Source: Minisyncoccota bacterium (GTDB lineage: Bacteria > Patescibacteriota > Minisyncoccia > Phycocordibacterales > UBA5272). Taken from it: a DNA stretch of 64,000 nt. This document shows positions 43,379 to 60,419 of the stretch, piece by piece; the stretch's first letter is position 1; the number at the start of each line of letters is the position of its first letter. The position numbers were made by a program, and so were the translations under genes. The stretch spans positions 691,702-755,701 of the forward strand of contig JBAZJW010000001.1 of the NCBI GenBank assembly GCA_041651055.1, in the 5' to 3' direction. The notes under the pieces are model-generated. The model was given only the letters and a program-made list of their open reading frames with translations. It had not been told where the DNA came from and searched no databases.

Positions 43379-43495
43379 ATTGCTTTATCTACTGCGTTAT
43401 AGAAAATTTTTCCTCCACGCGCCGTACCATATGTACGTCTTGGTCGTAAAAATTTTCTATGCCTTGTATCTAAAACAATTTCTGCCTTACGGTTC

Positions 43496-53463: not shown

Positions 53464-53594
53464 AATGTATATATCGATTTAGTCAGAAATTGTCCTAGAT
53501 GCTAGGCGTGGGAAAAGTTTTGTCGGAGACGTACGAATAGTACGTTGACTGAAAAACTTGGGGCCCACAACAACGCAGATGGGATAATTTATGG

Positions 53595-54343: not shown

Positions 54344-56536
54344 TTACCAATTGGTAATTATTAATAAATCGTCCTCGTCTTTCTTAATGTACTTCCAAAT
54401 TTCTTCTGTGATGAACGGCATGAATGGATGAAGTACAATGATTTGTTCACGAAGCAATGTTACAAGAAGTGTTTGCGCACTCGCTTTATCCTTATCTTCT
54501 ACGATGCGTACTTTGTGTGATTCAATAATCTGGTCACAAAATGTCTTCCAGAAGTAGTCGTATATCTTTTGTGAAGCCAAATGTAGGCGATAATTATCAA
54601 GATCAGAGGTAATATCCGCTTTTACTTCTCGCCAAGCATCATACAGTGCCTTGTCTTCCGCAATAAGTTCTACAGAAGTTTCGAAGTCTGTTGTCTTCTC
54701 AAACACAAAGCGTGTGGCATTCCAGATTTTATTGGCAAAGAGTTTGTACGCTTTTACTTTATCTTCCCCCAACTTCAAATCGTTCCCAGGACCATTTCCT
54801 ACAAGAAGGGCCATGCGAAGCGCGTCCGTTCCATATTTCGCAGTGAGGTCGCGAGGGTCAAGTACGTTTCCAAGTGATTTACTCATCTTACGTCCTTGCG
54901 TATCACGCACGAGTCCATGAAGGTATGCATGTTTAAATGGAACCTCGTTGAGTGCATAGGTTGAAAAGAGAATCATGCGTGCAACCCAGAAGAAAATAAT
55001 GTCGTGACCAGTTTCAAGTAGGTCTGTCGGATGGAATGTTTCCATATCTTTTGTTTTCTCTGGCCAACCAAGTGTTGAGAATGTCCACATACCAGAAGAG
55101 AACCATGTATCTAATGTGTCTTCGTCCTGTGCCCAGCCATCTCCCTCCGGAGGGTTAACTCCACAGTAGAGTTCTTTTGCGTTTTGCATCTCGCTTCCAG
55201 CTTCCAGCTTCTCACTGCTAGCTTCTCCCTGTCTATACCAAACAGGAATTCGATGTCCATACCAAATCTGACGAGAAATACACCAGTCGCGAAGATTTTC
55301 TATCCAGTGGAAATATACTTTTTCGAATCTATCTGGAATGATTGTTGTTCCTTTGCTTTCGACAGCTTCACGCATGAGATTCTTCAGTGTCGTTTCTTTA
55401 CCGAAATGAAGGAATGGTTTATTTACAGCGACGAACCATTGGAGTTTTGGTAATGGTTCTATAACACCGCCTGTTCGTTCCGCCGTAGGAATGTTTTGGG
55501 TTACCTCTTCTTCATTAATGAGTAAGTTATTTTCACGAAGCCAGTTCACGATGTAGTCGCGAGCATCGTTCACTTTTTTGCCATTTAATTCTTCATTCTT
55601 TAGTCCGTACATTTTGGCGTACTCATTAATTACTTGTCGTGAAGGTAAATCATGGCGGTCTTTTATTTCCCAGTCGATAGCACTGTGTGCAGGGGTCACG
55701 CCGAGAGCTCCTGTTCCGAAGTCTTTTTCAACAGCTTCGTCTGCGATCACTTTGATGGTAATGGGACATCCCGCGAATATACATTCATATGTCTTACCGA
55801 CGTATTCTTTGTATCGTTCATCATCTGGATGCACCGCCACAGCTACGTCACCAACTTTTGTTTCCGGTCGTGTTGAAGAAATAGCGATAGGGAAGTCAGC
55901 ACTGTACTTGAAGGTATACATAACACCTTTTCGTTCTTCAGCAACAGTTTCATCGTCTGAGATAGTCGTCTGACCTTTCGGATCCCAGTTTACAATACGT
56001 TCTCCACGATAAATAAGTCCATCATCGTACATTTTTTTGAACATCGTACGTACGGCGAGGTTACGTGTATCATCTAAGGTGAAAGCGAGACGTGACCAGT
56101 CGAGTGATGCCCCCATGCTTTTGGTTTGCGAAAGAATCGTGTTTTGACTTTCAAGAGCAAACGCGTTGATACGTGTAAGCATTTCTTCACGACCAATATC
56201 ATGACGAGATTTTCCTTCTTCCTTGAGAAGCTTCTTTTCTACGACGGACTGTGTCGCGATAGCAGCATGATCTGTTCCTGGAAGCCAGAGTGTTTTGTAG
56301 CCTTGCATACGCTTAAACCTCACAAGAGTATCTTGAATAGCGAGCATAATAGCGTGACCCGTATGAAGTGTTCCAGTGACGTTCGGTGGAGGGAGGATGA
56401 CGGTATACGCTTCTTTTCTTTCGCCCGGTAAATTATCAGGATTAAAGTACCCGCTCTTTTCCCACATGTCATAGAGCGGCGCTTCGACAGATGTTGCGTC
56501 GAATGGTTTGGTTAATGATTCTGGAACTTGTTTCAT
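54344..56536 (-). CDS. valS: Valine--tRNA ligase (compact, about 730 aa, no long C-terminal coiled coil)
   Basis: HIGH-type PPPNVTGTLHTGHA and KMSKS; start placed at MKQVPESLTKPF (second Met of the ORF-track frame). Confidence 0.9.
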   Translation of the reverse strand: MKQVPESLTKPFDATSVEAPLYDMWEKSGYFNPDNLPGERKEAYTVILPPPNVTGTLHTGHAIMLAIQDTLVRFKRMQGYKTLWLPGTDHAAIATQSVVEKKLLKEEGKSRHDIGREEMLTRINAFALESQNTILSQTKSMGASLDWSRLAFTLDDTRNLAVRTMFKKMYDDGLIYRGERIVNWDPKGQTTISDDETVAEERKGVMYTFKYSADFPIAISSTRPETKVGDVAVAVHPDDERYKEYVGKTYECIFAGCPITIKVIADEAVEKDFGTGALGVTPAHSAIDWEIKDRHDLPSRQVINEYAKMYGLKNEELNGKKVNDARDYIVNWLRENNLLINEEEVTQNIPTAERTGGVIEPLPKLQWFVAVNKPFLHFGKETTLKNLMREAVESKGTTIIPDRFEKVYFHWIENLRDWCISRQIWYGHRIPVWYRQGEASSEKLEAGSEMQNAKELYCGVNPPEGDGWAQDEDTLDTWFSSGMWTFSTLGWPEKTKDMETFHPTDLLETGHDIIFFWVARMILFSTYALNEVPFKHAYLHGLVRDTQGRKMSKSLGNVLDPRDLTAKYGTDALRMALLVGNGPGNDLKLGEDKVKAYKLFANKIWNATRFVFEKTTDFETSVELIAEDKALYDAWREVKADITSDLDNYRLHLASQKIYDYFWKTFCDQIIESHKVRIVEDKDKASAQTLLVTLLREQIIVLHPFMPFITEEIWKYIKKDEDDLLIITNW

Positions 56537-56596
56537 ATATATGTAGTATGGTAGGCTAAACGCTATTGTTATATACATTCATACTACCATAAAGCC

Positions 56597-57127
56597 ATGC
56601 TAAGCAAACAGTCAACCCTCCTCAAAAAAGGATCAAAGAAAGTCATCGAAAAAGTGAAGAAACTCTCGCCGAATACTAAGCAATTACCAGACCACCACTT
56701 TAAGGCAGTGAAAGTGAAGCGTGGATTGGATGGGCTCGGTCTTTTTGCAGAAGAACAAATCAAAAAAGGGGAAATGATTATCGAATATATCGGCAATATT
56801 CTTACCAAAGAAGAGGCGGATAAGAAGACGACAAGTCAGTATCTTTTTGAGGTGAGTAGAAATAAAACTATTGACGGAACGCCGAGATGGAATATTGCAC
56901 GATATTGTAATCATGCGTGCAACGAAGCGGCGAATGCCGAGAGTGATATCACAAAGGGTCGCGTCATCATTAAGGCGATCAAGACCATTAATATAGGCGA
57001 TGAGATTGTGTATGATTACGGAGAAGAGTTTGTGAAAGAGCACATCGCACCGCACGGATGTCGATGTAAAGCAAAAAAGCACGCGTATGGAATGGAGGGA
57101 GGAGATGAGTCAGATGTTAGAAATTAG
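56597..57127 (+). CDS. SET-domain protein-lysine methyltransferase
   Basis: GLGLFAEEQIKKGEMIIEYIG, NHACNEAAN (NHSC-type motif), GDEIVYDYGEEF, and post-SET-like CRCKAK cysteines. Confidence 0.75.
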   Translation: MLSKQSTLLKKGSKKVIEKVKKLSPNTKQLPDHHFKAVKVKRGLDGLGLFAEEQIKKGEMIIEYIGNILTKEEADKKTTSQYLFEVSRNKTIDGTPRWNIARYCNHACNEAANAESDITKGRVIIKAIKTINIGDEIVYDYGEEFVKEHIAPHGCRCKAKKHAYGMEGGDESDVRN

Positions 57128-57243
57128 ATTTTAGACTTTAGAGTATACAAATACGATATGAGACAAAAAGCGGCCACAAAGTGGCCGCTTTTTGTGTTTT
57201 TGCGTTGTCCTCTAACGTCTAAAATCTAATACCTAAAATCTAT
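57125..57243. repeat. TAGATTT-unit palindromic element (family copy 3) with an embedded terminator hairpin; its first TAG is the SET gene stop codon
   Basis: Left arm tagattttagactttagag at 57125..57143; centre AAAAAGCGGCCAC-AAA-GTGGCCGCTTTTTG; right arm cctctaacgtctaaaatctaatacctaaaatctat. Confidence 0.7.
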
Positions 57244-57432
57244 ACTTGCGAACTCTTCGCATTTGCATATACATACAAAAATAAAAATAAAAGTTATCCA
57301 CACATTTTGTATGCGTATCTATTGTGTGTGTATGTGTGCGTGACATACTTAGTGTATCGAGAGTAATGATTACGGTCGTGATCATAAATAACATTTATTA
57401 ATACTCTCTGATTTGCATAATAAAAATATATT

Positions 57433-57546
57433 TATGGCAGCAAAAAAGAAAGCGGTAAAGAAGGTAGCAAAGAAGGCAACAAAGAAAGTTGCAAAGAAGG
57501 CTGCTCCAAAGAAGAAGGCCGCAAAGAAGACAGCAAAGCGCGCGTA
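57433..57546 (+). CDS. Histone-H1-like Lys/Ala-rich small basic protein (37 aa)
   Basis: MAAKKKAVKKVAKKATKKVAKKAAPKKKAAKKTAKRA. A + strand terminator follows immediately. The 77-aa minus ORF from the track is its Phe/Ala-rich antisense. Confidence 0.5.
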
Positions 57547-57568
57547 ATCGCATTTGCCCGTTTCGAAT

Positions 57569-57601
57569 AAATCACCCGCTCCCACGGGTGATTTATTTTT
57601 T
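57569..57601 (+). terminator. Rho-independent terminator after the KA-rich gene
   Basis: ATCACCCG-CTCCCA-CGGGTGAT followed by TTATTTTTT. Confidence 0.7.
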
Positions 57602-57875
57602 CTGGGCATAATCATCTCATTTGCTTCGTTGGGTAATATTTTTTCTCCCGCAATGTACTATTCGTACATCTTGGTCGAAAAAATATTACCCGCCTTGCAA
57701 CTAAGACAATTTCTGCCCAGAAATTTTCGAATAAAATCATTCCATAAACAATGACGGTCATTGTTTTTTTGAATATTGAATATTGTCTCCATTATATATT
57801 CCACTCTTTCTTTCTTATTTTGTTCTCTCTAAAAATGAAGGCAAAAGCTTGTAAATATGCTATAATCTATCAACT

Positions 57876-60419
57876 ATGTCTTTCATTACAAAGCTTTTCC
57901 CCGATGAGTCAAAAAAGACCATCAAAAAACTCGAACCCATTGTAAATGAGGTGTTTTCTCACGAAGACGCACTTAAACTTCTTTCAGATACCGAACTCAA
58001 GCATCGCAGTCTCGCACTCAAGGCACGTGTCATGAAAGAAATCGAAGGGCTTACCGGAGATACTCTTAAACATACAGAAAAGAAAGTCCTCGAGGCTGTT
58101 CTTCCAGAAGCCTTCGCTCTTGTCCGTGAGTCTGCTCGTCGCACGCTTCACATGATGCATTACCGTGTGCAAATTATTGGAGGAATTCTTCTTCATCGTG
58201 GTAATATCGCCGAAATGCGTACCGGAGAAGGAAAGACACTTGTTGCGACACTGCCAGCATACCTAAACGCCCTCACTGGTCGTGGTGTGCACATTGTCAC
58301 CGTGAACGACTATCTATCACGTCGTGATGCAGTATGGATGGGGCAAGTATACGACGCTCTCGGTATCACAAGTTCCGTCATTAATCATCAGTCATCATTT
58401 ATGTATGACAGTACACATCTTGATGAAAGCGAACGAAAAGAAGACGATGAAAAGCGTGACGATGTTGGGTCTTACAAAGTCGTGTATGATTTCTTGAAAC
58501 CATGTAGCCGCCAAGAAGCCTACCGTGCGGATATTACCTATGGAACAAACAACGAATTTGGTTTTGATTATTTGAGAGACAATATTGGATACAGTAAAGA
58601 GGCTATAACTCAACACACACATCACTACGCTATCGTGGACGAAATAGACTCCATCTTGATCGACGAAGCACGTACACCGCTTATTATTTCTGCACCAGCT
58701 GCAGAATCGAGCGACATGTACAAGAAGTTCGCAAGCATTGCCATGTCACTTGTCGAAGCAGAGGACTATACTGTCGATGAAAAGCAGCGCGCTATTTCTC
58801 TTTCTGAGTCCGGTATCAATAAAGCCGAAGAAATGCTCGGCATTACGAATATTTATTCTGTTGAAGGAATGAAGTATGTGCATCATTTGGAAACTGCTGT
58901 CAAAGCAAAGGCATTATTTATTCGTGAACGCGAATATGTGGTCAAAGATGGCGAAGTGATCATCGTGGATGAGTTCACAGGACGTATGCAGCCGGGGCGT
59001 CGTTGGTCAGATGGGCTTCATCAGGCTGTCGAAGCAAAAGAAGGAACAAAGATCGAACAAGAGTCTCGTACACTTGCGTCTATTACGTTCCAGAATTACT
59101 TCCGTTTTTATGAAAAGTTGGCAGGCATGACAGGGACTGCCGAGACATCAAAAGAAGAATTCTATAAAGTGTACGGACTTGTGGTAACTCCTGTGCCAAC
59201 ACACAATCCGATTCACCGTAAAGATCACAATGATTTTATTTTCCAAACAGAAAAAGGAAAGTGGCAAGCGCTCGCTCGTAAGGTGAAAGAACTTCATGAA
59301 AAAGGTCAGCCGGTACTCATCGGAACCATTTCTATTGAAAAGAACGAAGCGGTTTCGAAGTATCTCGAACATGCAGGTGTTCCTCATGCTGTGCTCAATG
59401 CGAAGAACCATGAGAACGAAGGGGCTATCATCGTGGAAGCTGGAAAGAAAGGTGCGGTGACTATCGCTACCAACATGGCCGGTCGTGGAGTGGACATCAA
59501 GCTTGGTGGTCCACAGGCGACAGATGCAGAACGAGAAGTAGTACTCGCACAAGGCGGCCTCTTTGTGATCGGTACAGAGCGTCATGAAGCTCGCCGTATC
59601 GACAATCAGTTGCGTGGTCGTTCAGGACGACAGGGTGATGTGGGAGAAACACAGTTCTTCGTATCACTTGAAGACGATCTCATGCGTGTGTTTGGTTCAA
59701 GTAATATTAAGTCTATGATGGGGCGCTTTGGTATTCCAGAAGACGAGCCGGTCTCGAGCAAGCTCGTATCACGCGCACTTGAATCAGCTCAAGAAAAGAT
59801 TGAAGGATTCCACTTCGACACTCGTAAGCACACACTTCAGTACGATGACGTGCTTAATCATCAGCGTACAAGTATTTATGCGAAGCGTCGCAGGATTTTG
59901 TTTGAAGATGAAGCGCTTGTCGATGAAGTTATCGCAGAACTTATTGCAGAAAAACCAGAACTCGAGGCAGTTCTTGCACAGAAAGAAGAAAAGTACAGCC
60001 GTGAAGCAGTGCGTCACATTTTCCGTGTGATGATGCTACAAATTATCGATACGTTGTGGATGGAACATCTCGATGCGATGGAGCATTTGCGAAATAGTGT
60101 GAACCTTCGCGCCTATGGTCAGCGTGATCCTTTGGTTGAATACAAAAAAGAAGGCTTGCGAGCATTCCGTTCACTTGAAAGTTCACTTCGTGCTGAGCTT
60201 ACTATGTTTATCGAAAACTTGGATGGATTCTTCGCATCACAGCAAGCAATTGCGAATCAGCAGTTTGTTCCTGTTATTCCAGGAGATGGTAAGACTGAGG
60301 CGATTGAACAGGGAAAGATCGGAAGAAATGATCCTTGTCCATGTGGTAGCGGAAAGAAATGGAAGAAGTGCGGCGAATTGAATACCAACGAGCATCAGAC
60401 GTTGATGATGAAAAGTTAG
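57876..60419 (+). CDS. secA: Preprotein translocase ATPase SecA
   Basis: DEAD-like motor motifs, PPXD, and C-terminal zinc finger CPCGSGKKWKKC. Confidence 0.95.
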   Translation: MSFITKLFPDESKKTIKKLEPIVNEVFSHEDALKLLSDTELKHRSLALKARVMKEIEGLTGDTLKHTEKKVLEAVLPEAFALVRESARRTLHMMHYRVQIIGGILLHRGNIAEMRTGEGKTLVATLPAYLNALTGRGVHIVTVNDYLSRRDAVWMGQVYDALGITSSVINHQSSFMYDSTHLDESERKEDDEKRDDVGSYKVVYDFLKPCSRQEAYRADITYGTNNEFGFDYLRDNIGYSKEAITQHTHHYAIVDEIDSILIDEARTPLIISAPAAESSDMYKKFASIAMSLVEAEDYTVDEKQRAISLSESGINKAEEMLGITNIYSVEGMKYVHHLETAVKAKALFIREREYVVKDGEVIIVDEFTGRMQPGRRWSDGLHQAVEAKEGTKIEQESRTLASITFQNYFRFYEKLAGMTGTAETSKEEFYKVYGLVVTPVPTHNPIHRKDHNDFIFQTEKGKWQALARKVKELHEKGQPVLIGTISIEKNEAVSKYLEHAGVPHAVLNAKNHENEGAIIVEAGKKGAVTIATNMAGRGVDIKLGGPQATDAEREVVLAQGGLFVIGTERHEARRIDNQLRGRSGRQGDVGETQFFVSLEDDLMRVFGSSNIKSMMGRFGIPEDEPVSSKLVSRALESAQEKIEGFHFDTRKHTLQYDDVLNHQRTSIYAKRRRILFEDEALVDEVIAELIAEKPELEAVLAQKEEKYSREAVRHIFRVMMLQIIDTLWMEHLDAMEHLRNSVNLRAYGQRDPLVEYKKEGLRAFRSLESSLRAELTMFIENLDGFFASQQAIANQQFVPVIPGDGKTEAIEQGKIGRNDPCPCGSGKKWKKCGELNTNEHQTLMMKS

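Follow-up and report, generated by a model that had tools for sequence, protein, structure and literature searches.

We analysed a 64,000-nucleotide (nt) stretch of a Minisyncoccota genome, hereafter the window, in which a gene for a SET-domain lysine methyltransferase (SET) is followed on the same strand by a very small gene for a Lys/Ala-repeat protein, here called KA. An earlier note, made from the letters of the sequence, had suggested that the two neighbours form an enzyme-substrate pair acting on a nucleoid protein in a reduced genome. The genomic setting of that proposal fits, as a database entry 100% identical to the SET protein comes from a 775-kb contig of a metagenome-assembled genome (MAG) of Candidatus Paceibacterota (candidate phyla radiation), and both gene identifications, a SET methyltransferase and a small K/A protein, hold. 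The features of the locus are as follows.

56597 to 57127, plus strand: stand-alone gene for a SET-domain lysine methyltransferase of 176 amino acids, from its Pfam SET match
57163 to 57195, plus strand: hairpin resembling an intrinsic terminator after SET, with a perfect 15-bp stem, a 3-nt loop and a T-run
57244 to 57265, no strand assigned: palindrome TGCGAA-ctc-TTCGCA followed by TTGCAT, from an alignment of 25 loci
57294 to 57302, plus strand: perfect DnaA-box consensus TTATCCACA, matching at 9 of 9 positions
57322 to 57349, plus strand: putative sigma-70-type KA promoter, by consensus, with -35 TTGTGT (57322-57327), TG (57341-57342) and -10 CATACT (57344-57349)
57359 to 57408, plus strand: structured 5' leader of KA, from a minimum-free-energy fold
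57412 to 57421, plus strand: proximal -10-like box TTTGCATAAT, 12 nt before the KA ATG, conserved in the SET clade
57434 (ATG) to 57547 (stop), plus strand: KA, gene for a 37-amino-acid Lys/Ala-repeat polycation, from its in-frame conservation
57566 to 57597, plus strand: intrinsic terminator of KA, with a 13-bp stem and the loop CTCCCA (57579-57584), supported by covariation
57876 to 60419, plus strand: secA, with Pfam SecA domains at E-values down to 5e-115

The SET open reading frame (ORF) matched Pfam family PF00856 with an E-value of 1.4e-22 (80.5 bits against a cutoff of 22.4), covering profile positions 1-105 of 105, and the protein is laid out as a Lys-rich N-terminal tail (residues 1-40, with 11 Lys and an isoelectric point, pI, of 10.4), a mildly acidic SET core (pI 6.1) and a C-x-C-x4-H post-SET motif. 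The number of homologues exceeded 670, the best 120 being 67-83% identical. In alignments of 22 and 120 homologues, G46-L-G48 and Y64-I-G66 were invariant or at least 90% conserved, and N105, H106, C108, Y139, D140, Y141, C155 and C157 were invariant in the 120. The lysine methyltransferase that the earlier note had recognised by NHxCxPN-like and ELxxDY-like motifs is thus borne out, the motifs reading N105-H106-A-C108...N113 and E136-I-V-Y139-D140-Y141, and the homologues keep their catalytic residues, the loss of which would have spoken against the proposal. The post-SET cysteines named in the same note are present as C155-x-C157, but the third ligand position is occupied by a histidine and not by a cysteine (C155-x-C157-x4-H162), H162 being at least 90% conserved in the 120 homologues; a Cys3-His metal site formed by C108, C155, C157 and H162 is a plausible prediction.

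Sequence matches in the PDB were to the SET domains of MLL/KMT2, NSD, EZH and G9a (E-values of about 1e-14), and the GxG, YxG, NHxC and Y-D-Y motifs aligned with those of MLL3 and MLL1. An AlphaFold2 model built from 120 sequences had a mean predicted local distance difference test score of 82.6 (86-96 in the core), and a Foldseek search with this model returned SET domains as all of its top matches, with MLL1 (2w5z) at an E-value of 7e-11, a probability of 1.0 and a template modelling (TM) score of 0.60. The fold looks MLL/NSD-like and the enzyme appears to be catalytically competent. With the MLL/KMT2 and NSD domains (2w5z, 5f59, 6kqp) it shares the fold (Foldseek probability 1.0, TM score about 0.6, 26-34% identity), the four motifs and the C-x-C start of the post-SET region, whereas it differs from them in its length of 176 residues without partner-binding or AWS/pre-SET modules, in having His162 for the third Cys, in its Lys-rich N-terminal tail and, in most members, in a two-residue insertion after NHAC. 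A literature search on SET domains in the candidate phyla radiation returned nothing relevant beyond the Chlamydia and Methanosarcina precedents discussed below.

Two sets of loci, numbered with the prefix L, were compared with the window. A scan with the SET alignment, using one genome per species, yielded 80 loci, of which the 32 closest (SET at least 54% identical, GC content 25-43%) are referred to as the SET clade. Downstream of SET, 24 of these 32 loci carried a complete KA ORF, two reached the contig end inside the KA module, two had no downstream sequence and four showed about 6 kb without such an ORF. The second scan was independent of SET and searched metagenomes with the pattern ATGGC-N(1-31)-KKVAKKAVKK; it gave another 80 loci, 55 with complete K/A-rich ORFs of at most 70 amino acids. 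Nineteen of the 55 are of the DnaA-box type, defined by TTATCCAC(A/T) at 129-231 nt upstream of the KA ATG, and 36 lack the box.

The KA product, MAAKKKAVKKVAKKATKKVAKKAAPKKKAAKKTAKRA, contains 17 Lys, one Arg and 12 Ala, has neither Asp nor Glu and has a pI of 11.7. Tandem Repeats Finder returned a 12-nt period corresponding to KKxA; the earlier description of a 37-residue Lys/Ala-repeat protein was therefore right, while the repeat unit is KKxA rather than the AKK given there. Among the ORFs of at least 20 amino acids in the 64-kb window, KA alone has at least 25% Lys and at least 15% Ala. In-frame orthologues of 21-57 amino acids lie on the same strand downstream of SET in 24 loci of the clade, whose GC content spans 25-43%; they start with M[AV][AV]KKK and mostly end with AKRA. 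The window and L008 encode an identical peptide despite eight nucleotide differences, all of them synonymous third-position changes, and third-position differences likewise dominate in other orthologue pairs. KA is thus conserved in frame under purifying selection, which answers the concern that the ORF might not be. AAG accounts for 14 of its 17 Lys codons, compared to 48% in ten other genes of the window (p=0.004), and we consider it very probable that the plus-strand ORF is a translated gene.

KA had no Pfam or NCBIfam family at an E-value of 1 or below, a search in which short, biased queries score poorly, and an exact look-up of eight sequences, including the window KA, five orthologues and the ORF antisense to KA, found none of them in a collection of 15 billion proteins, so that the gene counts as unannotated. 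A protein search with a KA profile gave 18 matches, each an ORF wrongly extended upstream through the leader. Two of the contigs concerned read murB, KA, secA (L087) and murB, KA, a gene for an 812-residue protein (L084), with no SET within 5 kb of KA in either. With none of the exact sequences looked up present in that collection, KA, if it is made, is systematically missed by gene callers.

The spacer between SET and KA holds, in the roughly 300 nt before the KA ATG, a series of elements conserved in an alignment of 25 loci. The palindrome was found with a strict regular expression in 13/25 SET-clade loci, 41-68 nt upstream of the DnaA box and thus ahead of the KA promoter, and may be an operator; in L027 it is perfect (ATGCAAATGC-GAA-GCATTTGCAT). 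The DnaA box lies 17 nt upstream of the -35 element in the window. It is contained in AGTTATCCACA, which is invariant in 25/25 SET-clade loci, and in 46 loci, distant lineages included, a box preceded the KA ATG by 127-231 nt. With 26 loci anchored on the box, the order in nearly all of them was box, a gap of 15-18 nt, tATTGy, some 17 nt and GATAAT or CATACT, a consensus from which a promoter function is suggested. This is the only perfect intergenic DnaA box in the window, and with one such box, no cluster and no switch in GC skew, an origin of replication (oriC) at this position was ruled out. Genes controlled through DnaA boxes include the small-protein gene sda of B. subtilis and nrdAB of E. 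coli. KA resembles these in having a consensus box just upstream of its promoter, and differs from them in that its box is single and predicted.

Downstream of the promoter, the predicted leader folds into an outer helix, in which GAGAGU (57359-57364) pairs with ACUCUC (57403-57408), and an inner hairpin (57366-57385) with GGUC in its loop (57374-57377); 87.5% of cells pair across 24 loci, and the fold of the whole KA transcript had a z score of -4.3. The leader is 75-130 nt long across lineages, and GGTC was found at -36 to -80 from the KA ATG in 44/46 loci. In single-sequence folds of distant lineages GGUC(G) lies directly 5' of the 3' arm of a long-range helix, of which the arms are GAGAGU/ACUCUC plus UGAUCAC/GUGAUCA, GUGUGAU/AUCACAC, GUGGUGAU/AUCAUCAC, GAUGAUU/AAUCAUC and others. 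Because the helix sequence differs wholesale between lineages while GGUC(G) stays, a real leader structure is supported. The motif occurs once per locus, and a covariance model found a single copy in the window. With Rfam 15, only tRNAs reached gathering scores in the window, and at E-values up to 10 nothing meaningful was obtained over 57100-57900 for the leader, the terminator or the hairpin downstream. Box, promoter and GGUC(G) leader together may form a cis-regulatory element that has not been described before; a literature search found no report of a DnaA box placed just ahead of a promoter for an H1-like peptide, or for Patescibacteria. The same combination was observed in L084, L087, L088, L100, L111, L113, L114, L125, L130, L131, L134, L145, L147, L151, L154, L157 and L167.

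No Shine-Dalgarno sequence precedes KA in the window, nor any of the KA genes in the 19/19 loci of the DnaA-box type. The proximal TTTGCATAAT box could be a second promoter of a leaderless type. Genes of these organisms often lack a Shine-Dalgarno sequence and show a hexamer resembling a -10 box 8-12 nt ahead of the ATG, as at 56580-56585 for SET, at 57861-57866 for secA and for secA in L111, L113, L125, L131, L134 and L147, which suggests that their mRNAs are mostly leaderless and that the long structured leader of KA is an exception. Literature searches on histone-like or leaderless genes of Patescibacteria and on small H1-like proteins gave nothing relevant beyond the Chlamydia and Methanosarcina precedents.

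SET and KA are separate transcription units, as a terminator follows SET, and KA comes with a promoter block and a covarying terminator of its own. The intergenic palindrome that had been described after SET is the terminator-like hairpin at 57163-57195; in a strict scan a hairpin with a T-run was found within 90 nt of the SET stop in 17/31 related loci, with differing stem sequences. The terminator that the earlier note had assigned to KA was likewise found, with arms at 57566-57578 and 57585-57597, and its consensus stem shows compensatory double changes in 6/6 predicted pairs (25 loci). Most SET-clade loci retain the loop CTCCCA(C/T). In distant lineages the arms of the KA terminator are CCUCC/GGAGG or CUCCC/GGGAG, resembling anti-Shine-Dalgarno and Shine-Dalgarno sequences. 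The downstream secA in the window has its own -10 box, TATAAT (57861-57866), 9 nt before its ATG, and in distant lineages secA is likewise preceded by a -10 box of its own, which follows a full terminator and lies 8-12 nt from the ATG.

Repeats were observed on both sides of KA. Arrays of the 7-nt units AGATTTT (57112-57143) and TCTAAAA (57210-57241) form a 32-nt inverted repeat around the SET terminator, the former overlapping the final codons of SET, and similar CTA-periodic repeats lie at that place in other loci, such as about eight copies of ctattaa in L010. Between the KA terminator and secA, a near-perfect long hairpin of about 125 nt (57598-57725; RNA fold z score -8.4) belongs to a family dispersed in the clade, with copies at 43403-43486 and 53484-53547 and in L002, L004, L005 and L021, which resembles a miniature inverted-repeat transposable element or a repetitive extragenic palindromic element. 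Due to this repeat, the gap between KA and secA is longer in the window than the 77-150 nt seen in many distant-lineage loci.

The gene order in the SET clade is Hsp20, a class I aminoacyl-tRNA synthetase (aaRS) resembling valyl-tRNA synthetase, SET, KA and, in 15 loci, secA. The adjacency of the divergently oriented aaRS and SET was conserved in 29/32 loci, compared to 26/30 for SET and KA, and in 6/24 loci an insertion of 0.9-3.7 kb separates SET from KA. Four loci (L024, L025, L030 and L031) have SET without KA within 6 kb, and all four still keep the aaRS neighbour. Around the more distant SET homologues (L033-L080), which come from other Paceibacterota and from Alphaproteobacteria, no K/A ORF was found within 6 kb, and no neighbour recurred in more than 7/48 loci. 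The window ORF mechanically assigned to the aaRS (54344-56578, minus strand) probably starts too early; its conserved part begins at Met15 (56536), giving a divergent aaRS/SET promoter region of about 60 nt and not 18 nt.

The SET-independent scan, which started from the neighbour, altered our conclusion. Within the sequence available at each locus, SET was present in only two of the DnaA-box metagenome loci, L141 and L163, both from the clade of the window, and was missing from the 3.5-11 kb upstream of KA in L088, L114, L131, L151 and L167. By contrast, secA lies downstream of KA in 13/19 of the DnaA-box loci, at 77-820 nt; of the six others, five have sequence that ends too soon after KA to tell, and in L145 the 3 kb that follow contain no secA. 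Outside the SET clade and these 19 loci, secA is also next to KA in L146, L087 and probably L084. The SecA proteins of the distant lineages are only 51-60% identical to that of the window, and murB lies directly upstream of KA in at least eight loci. The earlier note had proposed co-occurrence in related genomes as a check on the enzyme-substrate pair, and the step from adjacency to such a pair fails it, since each gene occurs without the other nearby; co-occurrence was compared here as adjacency and nearby sequence and not over whole genomes. At this level no linkage beyond shared ancestry was observed, and adjacency within a syntenic clade is weak evidence. On these counts it is the KA module, usually beside secA, that is deeply conserved as a unit, and SET is a lineage-specific neighbour. 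We therefore take the SET-KA adjacency to be inherited synteny of one Paceibacterota clade, with the two genes presumably expressed independently.

Repeats of the KA type are not confined to this group. Free-standing K/A-repeat ORFs of 23-60 amino acids are widespread in metagenomes (for example L091, L092, L129, L137, L103 and L139) and look like a large class of unannotated small proteins; such ORFs outside the group span a GC content of 24-70%, and 22/36 of those lacking a DnaA box have a canonical, correctly spaced Shine-Dalgarno sequence, so that they resemble genuine genes. The KKxA repeat also forms the N-terminal tail of a SWIB/MDM2-domain protein in L096 (PF02201, E-value 2.5e-29) and of a primary sigma-70 factor in L122, both of them checked with Pfam. 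Similar KKxA-tailed proteins were noted by sequence resemblance in L098, L123, L138, L144, L148 and L150, and in L158 and L159 the repeat sits on a small Cys-rich domain with no Pfam match. As the same tail is carried by the DNA-associated SWIB and sigma-70 proteins, a nucleic-acid-binding role for KKxA is supported. In composition (K, A, V, P and T), in its short tandem repeats and in a length that varies by repeat number, KA is like Hc2, AlgP, the C-terminal tail of HupB and the C-terminal domain of histone H1, whereas it differs from them in being free-standing at 21-57 amino acids with nothing attached, in having no detectable homology to them and in a DNA binding that can only be presumed. 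From the H1-tail-like composition and the tail fusions, we would put the chance that KA binds nucleic acids or acts as a counter-ion of the nucleoid at about even.

Taken together, we propose that SET encodes a compact lysine methyltransferase that would be transcribed alone and end at its own terminator, and that KA is an autonomous small-protein gene. Its module comprises the perfect DnaA box, the putative sigma-70-type promoter, the GGUC(G) leader, an ATG lacking a Shine-Dalgarno sequence, the variable KKxA ORF and the covarying terminator, and is kept well beyond the SET clade, typically between murB and secA. The comparisons above establish that KA is coding and conserved, how its cis-elements are laid out and how synteny runs in these lineages. 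The product would be an abundant, intrinsically disordered polycation, like the C-terminal tail of histone H1, that may bind and neutralise DNA or RNA and so act on the nucleoid. Its synthesis would perhaps be tied to the status of replication through DnaA bound beside the promoter, and the leader may offer a further point of control. To this reading as a whole, an autonomous H1-tail-like nucleic-acid-binding peptide, possibly linked to DnaA, beside an independent SET gene, we assign a probability of roughly 0.55.

Several observations weigh against this proposal. KA has no homology to Hc1, Hc2 or H1 detectable with Pfam or NCBIfam, the resemblance being compositional only, and its conserved place beside secA could point to a link with secretion instead of the nucleoid. 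A different regulator might also use a lone DnaA-box consensus. As to the leader, covariation within the SET clade was not significant, the helices there barely varying; the covariance model from this clade recovered the window, L141, L163 and, weakly, L145 but missed the distant lineages, so that the comparison between lineages consists of anchored sequence views and single-sequence folds rather than a formal alignment. The functions of SET and KA are both read from sequence and a structural model, and a co-occurrence comparison made at the level of adjacency leaves some chance that SET and KA are functionally linked in the clade of the window.

A different target for SET can be imagined without giving up this proposal. 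Eukaryotic SET enzymes such as Rkm1-4, Efm1 and Rubisco LSMT act on housekeeping targets, and SET may in the same way methylate another Lys-rich housekeeping protein, such as a ribosomal protein or translation factor, with KA as an unrelated neighbour. SET is conserved about as well as housekeeping genes are (55-82% identity across clade loci, compared to 45-83% for the adjacent aaRS), and its divergent pairing with a gene of translation in 29/32 loci is consistent with such a role. Directly downstream of SET in L031 (5049-5414) lies a gene for a ribosome hibernation factor (PF02482, E-value 8.5e-15), and the near-identical downstream sequence of L030 (5901-6300) points to the same factor. Nevertheless, the distant SET homologues have no recurrent functional neighbour and no direct support for the assignment of a substrate was obtained. 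We regard a housekeeping target as unlikely, if not negligibly so, and as compatible with an autonomous KA gene rather than an alternative to it.

The pairing proposed in the earlier note, in which SET would methylate the lysines of the neighbouring KA peptide as a nucleoid writer-substrate pair, has real precedents. In Chlamydophila pneumoniae, cpnSET binds Hc1 and Hc2 and methylates Hc1 (Murata 2007, as reviewed in PMC3980110), and in an archaeal system Go1-SET methylates MC1-alpha (PMC3980110). These precedents carry caveats. The earlier note had named both H1-like proteins as methylated, whereas methylation by cpnSET is stated for Hc1, and the related enzyme NUE did not methylate Hc1 (PMC3980110). 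The window is like the cpnSET case in that one reduced genome encodes both a small bacterial SET enzyme and a nucleoid-type protein very rich in Lys and Ala. However, interaction and methylation by cpnSET were shown experimentally, whereas the pair in the window is known from adjacency alone, as a lineage-specific synteny, and KA, with 37 amino acids, has no globular part and no Pfam match to Hc1 or Hc2. The likeness to Go1-SET and MC1-alpha lies in a prokaryotic SET protein that stands alone and for which a chromatin protein of the same cell is the proposed target; MC1, in contrast, is folded, archaeal and modified at the single lysine K37, whereas KA is a bacterial repeat peptide with 17 lysines.

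Apart from these precedents, the pairing is favoured by the same-strand adjacency in 26/30 informative loci over a GC range of 25% to 43%, by the intact catalytic motifs and histone-methyltransferase-like fold of SET, and by the opposite character of the SET core (pI 6.1) and of KA (pI 11.7, 17 Lys). Against it stand the separate transcription units, the synteny of the whole neighbourhood, in which the aaRS-SET adjacency is conserved equally, the insertions of 0.9-3.7 kb in 6/24 loci, the four loci with SET and no KA, the distant lineages with KA and no nearby SET, and the lack of a KA neighbour at the more distant SET homologues. Methylation of KA by SET thus appears to us doubtful, with only a small likelihood left to it.

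The position of KA directly upstream of secA recalls secM-secA of E. coli, and the ORF could be a regulatory upstream ORF or leader peptide for secA, acting by a SecM-like or attenuation-like mechanism and not as a functional protein. KA is indeed followed by secA even in lineages with a SecA just 51-60% identical to that of the window, most loci having a gap of 77-300 nt, and a hairpin lies between the two genes. However, this hairpin constitutes a full terminator, secA is preceded by a promoter of its own with a -10 box 8-12 nt before its ATG, and KA is retained where secA is not downstream or has moved away (L003, L005, L023, L026, L029 and L145). Unlike SecM, KA lacks both a signal peptide and a conserved arrest motif, and the ORF varies in length from 21 to 57 amino acids. 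The bias towards AAG argues for efficient translation of the product, and similar ORFs bearing Shine-Dalgarno sequences occur in unrelated contexts. A SecM-like or attenuator leader was rejected on the terminator, the -10 box of secA and the persistence of KA without secA, and the idea of a lysine attenuator on the same evidence; we consider a leader function for secA very improbable.

Still less probable is that no protein is made from the sense strand, with either the 77-residue antisense ORF (57382-57615, minus strand) being the real gene or the transcript being a non-coding RNA. The antisense ORF is longer and, as the earlier note had pointed out, it is what the naive ORF track displays in place of KA; moreover, the conserved terminator loop CUCCCA resembles an anti-Shine-Dalgarno sequence. 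Yet stops interrupt each of the antisense frames in several orthologues, the substitutions are synonymous in the sense frame, the ATGGCA start and the AKRA-stop end are conserved, the promoter and T-run are oriented for the plus strand, and the antisense protein is absent from the 15-billion-protein collection. Finally, SET as an effector exported to methylate the histones of a eukaryotic host, like NUE, RomA/LegAS4 or BaSET, is scarcely credible, since the best sequence and structure matches to eukaryotic histone methyltransferases and a weak, sub-threshold NCBIfam match to the Legionella AnkI/LegAS4 model (39 bits, the cutoff being 550) are set against a very strong conservation that is unlike a fast-evolving effector, a hydrophilic Lys-rich N-terminus with no visible signal peptide and relatives in MAGs labelled Xanthobacteraceae and Hyphomicrobiales.

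Our literature searches found nothing on the KA module or on a Cys3-His SET enzyme of a reduced genome. What is new here is the conserved module of DnaA box, structured leader and mini-polycation, together with a strongly conserved Cys3-His SET enzyme, as the sequences present them, and not the pairing of the two. In its most far-reaching form, the finding would be a minimal "linker-histone-tail" gene of Patescibacteria, coupled to replication, tuned by its leader and, in one Paceibacterota clade, lysine-methylated by the adjacent SET enzyme; we hold this to be quite improbable, and if true, the tail and SET would constitute a stripped-down bacterial chromatin writer-substrate system. If KA is made, it would rank with the smallest conserved nucleic-acid-binding proteins that have been proposed in bacteria, and its DnaA box and leader would offer a simple case of replication-tied expression in organisms that cannot be cultured and add a regulatory RNA/DNA motif that is absent from Rfam. 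Few proteins of a large Paceibacterota clade are as well conserved as the SET enzyme, and identifying its substrate would show what role protein lysine methylation plays in an ultra-small genome.

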